Shown: positions 12,354-17,154 of the stretch, piece by piece
Layout of the letters: each line of letters opens with the position of its first letter
Numbering within the stretch: position 1 is the first letter of the stretch
NCBI GenBank assembly: GCA_016839585.1
Contig: JAEOTZ010000084.1
Coordinates: 1 to 17,154, forward strand
Source of the DNA: Promethearchaeota archaeon
Lineage (GTDB): Archaea; Asgardarchaeota; Lokiarchaeia; Sigyniarchaeales; SOKP01
Reading direction: 5' to 3'
Length of the DNA: 17,154 bases
Position numbers and translations under genes: made by a program
The notes under the pieces: generated by a model
Told to the model about the DNA's origin: nothing
Databases searched by the model: none
The model's input: the letters and a program-made list of their open reading frames with translations, nothing else

Positions 12354-13037
12354 CTAATTTTTTTTTACAACATACATTTCAAGATCTAGCTCCTTTTCCT
12401 TTAATTCCAGAAACATAATTTTATTTAATTGTTCCAATGTATCTTTTAATTCATTTAATTTACTTTTTCTGAAATTAATATAAAAGTCGGTCCAAAACCA
12501 ATCCTTCCCTTCTTCAAAGTAATCTATATCATCTCCTATAAGAAAGAAGATTATCTCTTTACCATAATGTATCATAATTCCTTCCACACAATTAAGATTA
12601 AGAAATACAATATCTTTGGTTTTTTCTAAATCCTCTTTAGAATATTCCAAAAGACTCTTTTTAGAATTCCAAATATAATTTTTCCTGATATAACGTTTAT
12701 CAGTCAAAATTTCGAATTGTTCATAGTTTTTTAATTCTGTTCGTGTTAGTTGTTTCCCTCTTAACTTTTTAAAATCTGTTATTAAAAAAATGATGAATAC
12801 AACAGTTACTACTATTAAAGATGATATAACAATTGAAGGTACATATAAACTTTGAAATGAATTTAAAGTAACTATAAATCCTAATATCGTTAAAATAAGA
12901 AATATAAAATAACCTAATAAAAGAAATCCCCTAGAAGAATACCAATTTTTAACTTTATATCGATACCATAAAATCATTTCTCCTTCTTGTAGATATTTTC
13001 GTATGCTTTTCATAATTATAGATAAACTTGTTGACAA
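12354..13037 (-). CDS. Membrane protein, 2 TM + bacterial PH-like domain (227 aa); candidate partner/immunity protein of the orphan tip
   Basis: YLQEGEMILW, then two TM helices, then EILTDKRYI: the L..GE.ILW / .lTd.R pattern of membrane-bound bPH-domain proteins. TTG start; ATG at 13013 is an alternative. The immunity role is inferred from position only. Confidence 0.6.
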   Translation of the reverse strand: MSTSLSIIMKSIRKYLQEGEMILWYRYKVKNWYSSRGFLLLGYFIFLILTILGFIVTLNSFQSLYVPSIVISSLIVVTVVFIIFLITDFKKLRGKQLTRTELKNYEQFEILTDKRYIRKNYIWNSKKSLLEYSKEDLEKTKDIVFLNLNCVEGIMIHYGKEIIFFLIGDDIDYFEEGKDWFWTDFYINFRKSKLNELKDTLEQLNKIMFLELKEKELDLEMYVVKKN

Positions 13038-13090
13038 TTAATTTGTTAGAGATCACTATTATATCTCTTATTACTAATATTTCAAATTGA

Positions 13091-13125
13091 TATTTAAAAT
13101 TATTTAAAATCAAAATAAAAAAAAA
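13091..13125 (-). terminator. T9 tract after the orphan tip stop, followed by a tandem ATTTTAAATA x2 (possible TATA for the 227-aa gene)
   Basis: A9 at 13117-13125 on the plus strand, 9 nt past stop 13135. Exact 10-bp tandem TATTTAAAAT at 13091-13110. Confidence 0.4.
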
Positions 13126-13134
13126 TTAATAAAT

Positions 13135-14291
13135 TTAGTTATTCAATCTCCATGTTCCTACTCCAATGAGCACACCGCCAGCAATTAGTGACGTAACGCT
13201 ACATAATAATGCTATCTTAGACTTATCTTTTCTATTACGATTACCTAATAGTATGATTCCTACTGATCCAAGAAACAATGCAAAACTTCCTATTAGAAAT
13301 GAAGAATGAGCTTCTTTTAGCAATCTAAGTTCATTATCAGCAAACGGTCCTTTAATATTAAAAATTTCTAGCAAAAATTTAACAATATTCTCCCCAGATA
13401 ATAATAATTTAATTATTTTAAATAAAACAAGTAATTCAACTGTTTATGTTACACCACCAAACTTTTTCTTAAGCTGATACATATATTTATGTGGATCCAT
13501 TATATAACGAGAAACAAAGAAAAACACTAATGCTGAAATAATACACCCAGTTGCCATACCATAAATATATGGAACAGAAAAAGTGTCAGGTAAAAACATT
13601 ACTGTTAAGATTAAAATAACTATGCTAAGTACAAATGCAATAATCCCTAACCAATATATTATATCTCTTTTGGCTCCATCTAAAACTGATAGAGTTGCAG
13701 TATAAATACCAACAAAACCTCCGATTATTGAAAAAGTTAGTGCAACACCAAAAATAAAATCACTAATACCATTGATAGTTGAAGATAGGGAACTCGATTT
13801 TAAATGATGTATTGCTGATTGTCCTAGTCCATTATCATCTATATTCTCAAGAAGATCCACAGAAAAATTTGTAATCTCCAAATTTATTGAAAACATATTT
13901 AAAGAAATCTCTACAGAAAAACCACTCATATTAAGATTAATATCAAGAGTTGGTATATGAAAATCGATAAATTCATTGAATTCTAGTTTTACATCATATT
14001 TAAAAGAAAAATCAATATCCCCCTTGACATTTAGCTTATTAATCGAAGATTTTATATTAAGGTCTATAATAGTACCAAACAAGAACATTGAAGTTAAAAC
14101 TGTTATAAAAATAAAGAAATTGTAATTAATAGAGTAATAGCGAAAATTATCCATATAAGAATCAAAAGTAATACGCGAATGATCAGCCACAGGATAAATT
14201 CTAATATCGGTAGCCAATCCATTAAAATGTCCTTAACGAAATCTATAATCAACTCTACCAGCTCTAGAATCGCCATTCCAATGGTTATAAT
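13135..14291 (-). pseudogene. 5'-truncated orphan C-terminal cassette paralogous to the 3' half of the large gene at 15326-17154; one frameshift (~14105-14122) and one in-frame TAA (13444-13446)
   Basis: From 14291 it reads IITIGMAILELVELIIDFVKDILMDWLPILEFILWLIIRVLLLILIWIIFAITLLITI, versus IITIGMAILELIELIAEFVMEILMEWLPILGYILWLIIRVLMLIFIWIIFAITLLIII in the large protein. That frame stops at 14105-14103. Homology resumes in the frame of the 257-aa ORF (DLNIKSSINKLNVKGD...NEFIDFHIPTLD vs DLQINTKINKITVQGE...NNFFDIYYPTID). The 257-aa and 79-aa ORFs are in the same frame, separated only by TAA plus 23 open codons. Confidence 0.88.
14123..14291. repeat. Direct repeat copy 1 (hinge), homologous to 16315-16483
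   Basis: Ungapped alignment at offset 2192. 14201-14291 vs 16393-16483 gives 80/91 identical, including an exact 33-mer CAGCTCTAGAATCGCCATTCCAATGGTTATAAT (14259-14291). About 75% identity continues to ~14123; similarity ends abruptly at 14292. Confidence 0.95.
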
Positions 14292-15164: not shown

Positions 15165-15284
15165 TTTCGAAAAAAAATAAATGATAATTTTGATTTCTTA
15201 AAAACTATTCAATATATATTATTTATATATATTTAATTTTTTCTCTTCAAAGATTTCCTCATTTTGAAATTATAAATGTTAATT

Positions 15285-15294
15285 AAAAAAAAAA
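15285..15294 (-). terminator. T10 tract downstream of large gene stop
   Basis: A10 on the plus strand, 31 nt past the stop at 15326. Confidence 0.4.
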
Positions 15295-15325
15295 GAAATT
15301 GAATAAGGATTTTTAAATTCATTAT

Positions 15326-17154
15326 TTATGAATACTGTTTTTTAAGATCTAACGCTATACATGCCAATATAAATCCAAATAGTAATGAAATAAAGCTGCA
15401 TATACCAGTATATAAAACTCCCTTATTAAGAGGCATAATTGTTATTAAACTCAATACACCAATAACTAAACCTAGTCCGCCTCCTATAATACTCATAACA
15501 GAATCTGCTACTAAATCTCCTTCAGTTAATTCGTATTCCGATAATTCAACCAATGACCATTCAATCCCAAACCAATATAAACATTTATCAAGGCAATTTA
15601 AAAATGCTATTATAATTTGTTTGGGACTCGATGCTGACCAACCTCCATTTAAAATTCCCCATAAATAAAGGAAAGATGTAAATGCTACAAGTGCAGAAAA
15701 AATATGTCCAACAGCTAATCCAAAAAGGGCACAAGCAAATGCCATAATATCGTTTTCAATAAAAATTTCCATAACTGATGTTGTTAAGATCCAAAAAACA
15801 AGTTCAACCACGAAATATCCTAAACCAACTAAAAGATCATAACTAGGTTTAGGATCATAAGGACTTAATTTTGCAATGAAACTTACTAATATATAAAATG
15901 CGCTTGATTGTGCTAATCCATCGCCAATATTAGAAAGGAAATCATAAACATAAAAATCTTCTGAATCTGCTGAATAGGCTAAGTCATTGCTTTTTAAATT
16001 GGAATTTGAGGATTGTTCAGGATTCTTATCGAAAAATTCATCCAAAATATTATCAGTGTAATCGGTTATATTTATATCAATCGAGAAAAACCCTATTTTG
16101 AATAATAATTCAAAATGATCCGATTCTAAGTATGTATCAATTGTTGGATAATAAATATCAAAAAAATTATTATACTCATTTCCAATTTCATATCCGAATA
16201 TAAAATTTGTTTCACCTTGTACTGTTATTTTATTGATTTTAGTATTAATTTGCAAATCCATGAAAATATTAAATGCATACACAGCACCAACTAATAAAAC
16301 AAATTGTATTATAATAATTAAAAGAGTTATAGCAAAGATTATCCAAATAAATATCAACATTAATACTCTAATTATTAACCACAATATATATCCTAATATC
16401 GGTAGCCACTCCATTAAAATTTCCATGACGAACTCTGCGATCAGTTCTATCAGCTCTAGAATCGCCATTCCAATGGTTATAATGAGTCCTACTGCGAAGG
16501 ATGCCAATTTTTTTAAGGGTTCCCAGAGTGCTTGTTTTTTGGTCTTGGGTTTCTTTCCAAAAGGAGAACTTTCCTTCTCACAAAACCACGGGATAAAGCC
16601 TAACACCGAAATCGGCAGATTCATCATTACAGCCAAAGTTCCATTCAGTTTAGTCGAAACGTAGCTGTAAACAATGGCAGTTTTGTTATTGGTCTCATTT
16701 ACAAGACACTCAAGCAGCAAATTCAGGATTTTCTTTGCATCTTCCGAAGAAATCTCAAATCGAATGAACACAAAATCGATTTCATCGCAGGCTTGCTCGG
16801 TATCACCGTCTCGCCCTACAGAAATGAATTTGAAAATTTCATCATCGGCATTATATATCGGTGTTTCATCCAGAGTTTCATTTTGAACGTGCGCGTTAAA
16901 TACAGTCTCGGTAAATAAGCTGGTTGGAATCACGATGACATTTGGTCCTTCTTTAAAGGGGGTACCAGCACCGCTATCATTCACATATAATTGGATGATG
17001 TTCATTCGCTCTTGTTCTTGATAATGCCCGTTAAACACCGTGCCGTTGGTCTCATAAATCGCTATAGTATTTGCCTTTTCTATTCCGATAGTGGTTACAT
17101 TTATCCTTACATCTTGCTCGAGCTGAAAAGAACCGATAGTAGTCACATTTAGAA
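15326..17154 (-). CDS. C-terminal part (>606 aa, 5'-partial) of a large membrane protein with conserved hydrophobic hinge and variable multi-TM tip
   Basis: The frame is open to the window edge (CTA AAT precede the GTG at 17146), so the track's start is probably not the real one. A soluble region is followed by a very long hydrophobic/amphipathic segment, a beta-rich domain, an S/N-rich linker (NPEQSSNSNLKS) and ~5-6 TM helices, including Gly-rich IIGGGLGLVIG. Confidence 0.85.
   Translation of the reverse strand, partial: LNVTTIGSFQLEQDVRINVTTIGIEKANTIAIYETNGTVFNGHYQEQERMNIIQLYVNDSGAGTPFKEGPNVIVIPTSLFTETVFNAHVQNETLDETPIYNADDEIFKFISVGRDGDTEQACDEIDFVFIRFEISSEDAKKILNLLLECLVNETNNKTAIVYSYVSTKLNGTLAVMMNLPISVLGFIPWFCEKESSPFGKKPKTKKQALWEPLKKLASFAVGLIITIGMAILELIELIAEFVMEILMEWLPILGYILWLIIRVLMLIFIWIIFAITLLIIIIQFVLLVGAVYAFNIFMDLQINTKINKITVQGETNFIFGYEIGNEYNNFFDIYYPTIDTYLESDHFELLFKIGFFSIDINITDYTDNILDEFFDKNPEQSSNSNLKSNDLAYSADSEDFYVYDFLSNIGDGLAQSSAFYILVSFIAKLSPYDPKPSYDLLVGLGYFVVELVFWILTTSVMEIFIENDIMAFACALFGLAVGHIFSALVAFTSFLYLWGILNGGWSASSPKQIIIAFLNCLDKCLYWFGIEWSLVELSEYELTEGDLVADSVMSIIGGGLGLVIGVLSLITIMPLNKGVLYTGICSFISLLFGFILACIALDLKKQYS
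16315..16483. repeat. Direct repeat copy 2 (hinge), homologous to 14123-14291
   Basis: See copy 1; the exact 33-mer is at 16451-16483. Confidence 0.95.

Follow-up and report, generated by a model that had tools for sequence, protein, structure and literature searches.

Giant surface protein with a candidate polymorphic cassette locus of C-terminal tails in an Asgard archaeon

The locus and its reconstruction

The stretch of DNA analysed here (the window) is a contig of 17,154 nucleotides (nt), JAEOTZ010000084.1, from a Promethearchaeota archaeon, and its positions 12354-17154 hold genes that an earlier reading made from the letters alone (the sequence-only reading) had described as a C-terminal displacement locus of the polymorphic toxin type, probably from an Asgard archaeon. 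The four elements named in that reading are all present on the minus strand. They are a large open reading frame (ORF) of 608 codons that is open at the contig end (15326-17152) and ends in what we call tip A; the gene for partner A (14505-15164, 219 amino acids, aa); a headless tail, orphan B (13135-14297); and the gene for partner B (12354-13037, 227 aa from a TTG codon). We interpret the window as the distal half of a locus of polymorphic C-terminal cassettes that belongs to a giant Asgard surface protein, a reading whose functional part we infer and to which we assign a probability of roughly 55%.

The window is the entire contig C75 of genome G000, a metagenome bin of 3.45 Mb that is 99% complete. 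Its last 127 nt are identical to the end of contig C56, while the end of contig C50 and the start of C56 have complementary 127 nt in common; the repeat behind these overlaps is an exact one of 171 nt, which two contigs enter and two leave. The order C50, C56 (reversed), C75 (reversed) is the only linear join that the overlaps would allow. Joined in this way, the locus begins with a giant gene of 4,203 codons, whose C-terminal end is tip alpha, followed by a 163-aa gene with four transmembrane (TM) segments (s163), by orphan beta in a frame of 645 codons, by a 221-aa 4-TM gene on the opposite strand, and by orphan gamma, a frame of 751 codons whose last 608 codons are the large ORF of the window; partner A, orphan B and partner B complete the series. 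The gamma frame runs 143 codons into C56 across the contig overlap and then stops. The sequence-only reading had taken the large ORF for the end of the giant gene itself and had proposed retrieval of the upstream contig. This does recover a giant gene, but because the join puts that gene upstream, the large ORF of the window is itself most likely a displaced cassette, gamma. Judged from the joined sequence, the locus most likely consists of one giant gene and three 5'-truncated copies of its tail (beta, gamma and B), each of these accompanied by a small membrane-protein gene.

A locus of this kind might arise as an assembly or binning artefact in which strain variants of one gene end are collapsed into one bin. 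The contigs do break exactly at the repeat, and the bin carries 2.2% contamination. Against this, two tandem copies lie inside the window and two more inside C56, the copies have diverged considerably (synonymous divergence, dS, ~0.5) and belong to different tip classes, and in another species three copies share a single contig of 108.9 kb, on which a giant gene of >2,866 aa is followed by genes of 193, 759, 162 and 694 aa. Further relatives have two copies per contig. We consider an artefact very improbable.

Orphan B begins abruptly at about position 14297, inside the hydrophobic hinge that precedes the tail. Its opening part forms a direct repeat with the large ORF (14123-14291 against 16315-16483, 169 nt at 83% identity), much as expected from the hinge repeat of about 170 base pairs with which the headless copy had been said to open. 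Three short minus-strand frames (14103-14276, 13444-14217 and 13135-13374), when read through, compose one headless copy of the large frame, covering its C-terminal half. The similarity to tip A falls in the predicted steps: over 61 aa of hinge peptide the two agree at 79%, identity drops to 30% across the ~200 aa that follow (E 1e-13), and the two final helices, which cannot be aligned directly with tip A, match a foreign relative's tail. Orphan tip B is thus a real headless copy but a broken one, since the reading frame shifts close to a T-run at ~14105-14135 and meets a TAA in frame at 13441-13443, and by its sequence we classify it as a pseudogene. Stop-codon recoding was considered for the TAA and is ruled out by the additional frameshift; the relatives of orphan B are open in the standard code.

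A fixed breakpoint below a giant surface protein

Beta, gamma and B match the giant gene with ~87% DNA identity from differing 5' start points, while the homology of all three ends at one place, positions 11724-11729 of the giant gene. This corresponds to position ~16326 of the window, or about residue 275 of the window frame, and lies within the last hinge helix. Among the four cassettes the DNA is 80-100% identical upstream of the breakpoint and through most of the hinge; past it, identity is 35-55% at the DNA level, which is near background for AT-rich DNA, and 25-35% at the protein level. The same pattern is seen between genomes, as locus L019 on the contig of a close relative is ~90% identical to beta up to the breakpoint and ~50% beyond, and carries a tip of the class of B with a partner of the partner-B family. 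Gamma and the giant gene share an exactly identical block of 171 nt, within ~300 nt of near-identity, which points to more recent gene conversion between these two.

The conserved domain upstream of the hinge and the tips behind it give different trees. In the conserved-domain tree, copies group by genome or lineage with a median terminal branch of 0.043, and support is high for alpha with gamma (97/93), for beta with L019 (93/91) and for L020, L022 and L028 together (98/100). The tip tree has a median terminal branch of 1.38 and separates into three classes that do not follow genome boundaries: class I with alpha, beta, L022 and L021-694; class II with gamma (tip A), L021-759 and L020; and class III with B, L027, L019 and two tips of L023. 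On the tip data, approximately unbiased (AU) tests reject each of the clades of the conserved-domain tree (p 4e-5 to 3.5e-4) as well as a single clade of all four G000 tips (p = 9e-10), the tested groups having been named after the first tree had been seen. This conflict between the two trees supports an exchange of tails by recombination at the hinge. In the conserved part, copies of one genome differ by a dS of ~0.5 with a ratio of nonsynonymous to synonymous divergence (dN/dS) of ~0.1, which indicates diverged functional alleles that were brought together rather than fresh duplicates, as a displacement model leads one to expect.

A cassette locus that evolves by recombination at a conserved hinge, with displaced orphans decaying, is well supported as the genetic mechanism by these sequence comparisons. 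Tails that come in or are already resident would recombine with the gene being expressed by way of its conserved domain and hinge, and the tail would be swapped together with the small gene that travels with it. The displaced tail would be left downstream as an orphan and later decay, as B appears to have done. The displacement architecture resembling Rhs and CdiA that the sequence-only reading had proposed is therefore upheld by a fixed breakpoint, divergent tips, truncated orphans and downstream small genes.

The giant protein contains many PKD domains, a Laminin_G_3 domain and calcium-binding repeats of the TSP3 type; when its 3,654-aa N-terminal frame was scanned with Pfam, only PKD, PKD_4, Laminin_G_3 and TSP3_bac came up. 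There is a signal-like segment at residues 30-48, and the next hydrophobic segment comes only at residue 3855. The giant is thus predicted to be a secreted cell-surface protein whose conserved pre-hinge domain lies outside the cell after ~3,800 extracellular residues. Its C-terminal end is ordered as a conserved domain of ~170 aa, the hydrophobic hinge, a small beta-sandwich and a membrane tail of six helices. The eight short forms examined all lack both a signal peptide and an N-terminal TM segment, one of them starts in the middle of a Laminin_G_3 domain and orphan B starts inside the hinge, which makes the short copies look like headless cassettes.

Further pieces of this gene and its surroundings were observed elsewhere. 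An inverted partial copy of a calcium-binding segment lies on C50 (17466-17735, minus strand, against 54330-54599, plus strand), 37 kb upstream of the original and identical to it at 79/90 aa and 236/270 nt; pieces of the giant gene are therefore scattered beyond the cassette array. In two distant family members (L008 505-2796, which is C50 41504-43795 of G000 on the minus strand, and L030 7744-9984), the gene immediately upstream of the giant one encodes a surface protein of ~750 aa with SBBP beta-propeller and fn3 domains. In the distant member L031 (8148-12556), the conserved domain is split across overlapping called genes of 621 and 851 aa with 5.7 kb upstream that hold no called gene, and this may be a frameshifted giant gene.

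The tail module and its small partners

In the window, the conserved alpha/beta domain upstream of the hinge (16553-17092, minus strand, residues ~21-200) is the best conserved part of the family. It is followed by the hydrophobic hinge (16262-16540, residues 205-297), which is modelled as a single long helix along which conserved acidic residues form a stripe. The first variable part is a six-stranded beta-sandwich (16064-16252, residues 301-363) that contains the sole conserved motif of the tail, Y.I..Y..F.D...P, with the invariant Pro336. The Gly-rich hypervariable tail is made up of six predicted TM helices (15332-15961, residues 398-607) with a hydropathy of 2-3.3, in addition to the hydrophobic hinge beside them. 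AlphaFold models reached a mean predicted local distance difference test (pLDDT) score of 62, and of 78 with a deeper alignment of 58 rows; the latter model shows a confident alpha/beta domain at residues ~21-190 (pLDDT 85-97) and a disordered acidic linker between the beta-sandwich and the six long helices. The GC content also steps at the hinge, from 40% in the pre-hinge part (16484-17154) to 28% in the tip (15326-16314) in a genome of 29% GC, and GC-biased gene conversion or amino-acid composition could account for this.

Known families offer little guidance. Foldseek searches of the PDB, the ESM Atlas and VIA-align wide returned only generic helical bundles (Z <= 8.9), with the conserved domain alone barely probed; profile searches of PDB sequences with whole-family and conserved-domain alignments gave no match; and Pfam and NCBIfam scans of tips, partners and the other small genes gave nothing above threshold. 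Mean pairwise identity per column falls from 0.3-0.5 in the conserved domain to 0.22-0.35 in the hinge and 0.13-0.18 in the tail outside the motif, while most tips can be aligned with each other within and between classes (E 1e-7 to 1e-72). The conservation along the columns and the shared beta-sandwich motif mark the tails as one homologous, fast-diverging module and not as assorted domains; the tails are old and strongly diverged alleles of this module.

A small gene on the same strand follows 16 of the 18 tips examined. Partners A and B belong to one family (P1), in which two TM segments predicted by hydropathy precede a soluble C-terminal domain of ~100 aa, and they show no pairwise similarity (BLASTP E = 1), being linked only through third sequences. 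The description of two sequence-divergent 2-TM partners was thus accurate, and so was the spacing of ~100-160 base pairs between tip and partner, which amounts to 161 nt for A and to 97-121 nt for B depending on the start of partner B. As in an ortholog with 93% identity, this start is probably the ATG at 13013 rather than the TTG, which gives 219 aa for partner B. A PH-like fold had also been suggested for the partners, and it is a lead: none of 14 partner-type proteins scanned matched a PH or bPH Pfam family, but language-model neighbours of partners A and B fall into clusters annotated as PH_40, bPH_7, bPH_2 and DUF304-like, with a match to STM3941_fam below threshold. Membrane-anchored bPH proteins of the YdbS/YdbT type likewise have two TM segments and a soluble domain of ~100 aa.

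Other loci have other partners. Family P2 is soluble or TM-anchored with a G.GT..DP motif and repeats that resemble a beta-helix, and family P3 has two TM segments and a soluble domain. The remaining partners are unrelated 4-TM proteins of ~150-220 aa; BLASTP and phmmer found no homology among those compared (s163, the 221-aa reverse gene, and the 151-aa and 159-aa proteins of L022). Tips of class I pair with 4-TM genes and tips of classes II and III with P1 or P2. One foreign locus, L027, holds the nearest relative of tip B as well as that of partner B, and there the relative of partner B follows the tip. The co-variation of tips and partners that had been proposed as a check is therefore seen only at the level of broad classes, and the loci that can be compared are few and related. 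A complex prediction for residues 290-608 of tip A with partner A scored 0.01 and weighs neither way on binding.

Small genes of these families are also found without tips. L033 (786-4928) and L034 (1170-4269) each hold an array of 5-6 small genes of the 2-TM family P1 and the beta-helix-like family P2, and the 93% ortholog of partner B sits in the L033 array, which is adjoined by a minimal nucleotidyltransferase-HEPN pair. Such arrays could be read as islands of orphan "immunity" genes or, just as well, as an island of small membrane proteins that is variable in general.

The locus could instead be a classical polymorphic toxin-immunity system, in which the multi-TM tip would be a pore-forming toxin that the giant protein brings into adjacent cells, the partners its immunity proteins and the orphans a reserve arsenal. 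Immunity to membrane-acting toxins, such as colicins and ionophoric CdiA toxins, is usually conferred by small membrane proteins. The layout resembles that of Rhs, CdiA and MafB loci, a small gene follows nearly every tip, the arrays of L033 and L034 look like immunity islands, and the conserved acidic stripe on the hinge helix and the Gly-rich tails also speak for such a system. The tips themselves speak for something else, as all of them are homologous and of a single architecture where polymorphic toxin loci carry unrelated folds, and six hydrophobic helices together with the hinge should insert co-translationally into the membrane of the producer. We recognised neither a domain for cleavage or release nor any machinery for secretion or delivery, and the partners come from several unrelated families that match the tips only by class. 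Searches of Pfam and NCBIfam and for motifs found no toxin, protease or release motif or domain. A classical secreted toxin is thus unlikely given the homology and extreme hydrophobicity of the tips, and the toxin-immunity scheme as a whole seems doubtful to us. What stands of the corresponding proposal in the sequence-only reading is the cassette architecture; the toxin part is not supported, with homologous tips, no toxin domain found and partners from several families.

Interpretation and relation to known systems

The tail most likely remains in the membrane of the producer as the base of the surface fibre, as it is too hydrophobic for a soluble secreted toxin. Judged by sequence features, the variable tail is probably one half of an allele-specific membrane pair, with the small membrane partner as the other. 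Such a pair could serve identity or compatibility, or could act as a membrane-delivered effector with its protector, rather than as a toxin of the enzyme type. A bolder proposal, which we put forward tentatively and consider rather unlikely, is a cassette-based system of allorecognition or of contact-dependent membrane effectors: a giant adhesin would present or transfer a polytopic module whose allele is switched at the hinge and matched by a co-inherited 2-TM or 4-TM protein, the module possibly being transferred through membrane contact or fusion between protrusion-bearing cells. If true, self/non-self recognition would here take a form that has been described neither in archaea nor in bacteria. 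A possible functional analogue of the variable membrane tail with its small 2-TM partner, for which homology is not expected, is the IdsD-IdsE pair of Proteus mirabilis, an adjacent pair of membrane proteins that is allele-specific and whose variable regions lie within or close to TM segments. IdsD is delivered by type VI secretion and has neither a giant surface stalk nor orphan cassettes.

Several observations weigh against the reading as a polymorphic cassette locus. The three-contig join is inferred from k-mer overlaps. The partner families are heterogeneous, several of them being unrelated; the tip class of gamma has P2 partners elsewhere and a P1 partner here; and orthologs of partner B (93%) and partner A (58%) lie in tip-less P1/P2 arrays. 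No structural relative, toxin, protease or release motif was found in searches of families, folds and motifs. Beta and gamma have an ATG 8-18 nt upstream of the start of homology, and their divergent tips of ~300 codons are still open despite a genome of 29% GC; they may thus be expressed independently, and annotators call such short ORFs genes. This last group of observations also favours a different explanation, ordinary tandem paralogs, according to which the copies are independent membrane-protein genes, perhaps subunits of one membrane base, whose 5' parts are kept alike by gene conversion without any switching, and the small genes are unrelated neighbours.

The open frames of beta (645 codons) and gamma (751 codons) fit such paralogs, as do the recurrence of short forms of ~700-1,000 aa in other genomes, the start of gamma and of a short copy in L021 at equivalent positions of the giant tail, the low dN/dS in the conserved part, and the gene conversion shown by the exact block between giant and gamma. 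Independent paralogs would however have to do without a signal peptide or N-terminal TM segment although their domain is extracellular in the giant, the 5' ends vary from copy to copy with one cutting a Laminin_G_3 domain and one lying within the hinge, and B is a pseudogene. Above all, tip classes are common to several genomes against the conserved-domain tree, which needs an exchange of tips and not duplication alone. We therefore judge tandem paralogy unlikely and retain the cassette locus.

The likeness of the cassette locus to Rhs and CdiA loci consists in a large surface or secreted protein, a sharp demarcation in front of a variable tip, a small gene after each tip, downstream orphan tips that keep a conserved fragment with differing 5' truncation, and the exchange of tips between lineages. 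There are also differences. No YD/RHS repeats were found by Pfam in the 3,654-aa frame and no PxxxxDPxGL by motif search in the 4,203-aa product; TPS and FHA Pfam families and the VENN motif of contact-dependent inhibition (CDI) systems were likewise not found, and no transporter gene was recognised among the neighbours. The sequence-only reading had seen no Rhs or CDI domains in the visible part, and this now extends to the whole giant product. In contrast to Rhs and CdiA, the Asgard breakpoint falls within a transmembrane hinge that is hydrophobic, the tips are polytopic membrane modules homologous to each other and not unrelated soluble toxins, the gaps between tip and partner measure ~100-160 nt, and the host is an archaeon. 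The broad polymorphic toxin systems of Zhang et al. 2012 are said to combine variable tips at a sharp boundary and orphan cassettes with diverse, often unrelated toxin domains. The Asgard locus has the conserved stalk, the sharp boundary and the orphan cassettes downstream, whereas its tips share the beta-sandwich motif and a multi-TM tail in place of diverse toxin domains.

The closest archaeal analogue, by comparison of organisation, appears to be the VARTIG system of Thermococcales, in which a large secreted protein of the Ig/PKD type has ~200 C-terminal aa that are hypervariable through recombination, smaller downstream genes align with this C-terminal region, and accessory genes vary; its organisation is like that of polymorphic toxins and its function is unknown (Makarova et al. 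2021, PMC8416519). The same paper reports no equivalent beyond Thermococcales (PMC8416519). By its description, the variable part of VARTIG is the distal Ig domain of a large Ig protein of the arCOG07710 type with a putative sorting signal, in contrast to the 65-aa beta-sandwich and six TM helices behind a TM hinge described here. The Asgard proteins gave no match to a named family or solved structure, and the accessory families of the Asgard locus differ from those of VARTIG.

A profile search with the conserved domain and the hinge gave 232 clusters at 50% identity, 174 of them at E <= 1e-10. The family comprises giants of 2,000-5,900 aa, in which 300-900 residues separate the domain from the end, as well as many short forms that start at or inside the conserved domain. 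Named members are almost all Asgard (Promethearchaeota, Thor-, Hermod- and Helarchaeota), which supports the proposed origin of the window, and are joined by marine-sediment metagenomes and by one record labelled Dehalococcoidia. Within the same genus, 4 of 24 other genomes searched contain a match, often with several per genome and at contig ends. Literature searches turned up no account of such a tail-cassette family, and the absence of Rhs and CDI domains and motifs marks it as undescribed.

Asgard archaea are the closest prokaryotic relatives of eukaryotes, and their biology depends on close physical partnerships. To our knowledge, little is known about how they recognise, adhere to or fight their neighbours. 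The family described here is a widespread and unannotated one in which a giant surface protein would recombine its tail at a fixed point with spare tails kept behind it. The same genetic logic marks systems of conflict and identity elsewhere (Rhs, CDI and VARTIG), among which a membrane-embedded variable part is unusual. This makes the family a candidate system by which Asgard archaea would recognise other cells or oppose them at the level of the membrane. There is also a practical side to this, because the repeated tails break metagenome assemblies at such loci, and headless gene tails would account for many of the "hypothetical proteins" of 500-1,000 aa that Asgard bins contain.

In the window itself, no tRNA genes were found, and a scan for sigma-70 promoters and terminators, a model not relevant to archaea, gave no excess over shuffled sequences. 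The cassette array is adjoined by a gene for a Peptidase_C25 (gingipain-type) protein of 739 aa (9745-11964, plus strand), and a homologous gene flanks the cassette locus of another species (L022 792-2996). This peptidase may be a protease that processes the giant surface protein. Two more genes lie between the cassette array and the gene for ribosomal protein S6e: one for a 1,015-aa protein with an alpha-alpha toroid domain of the prenyltransferase type (5847-8894, plus strand) and one for a 907-aa protein without a family match (2954-5677, minus strand).

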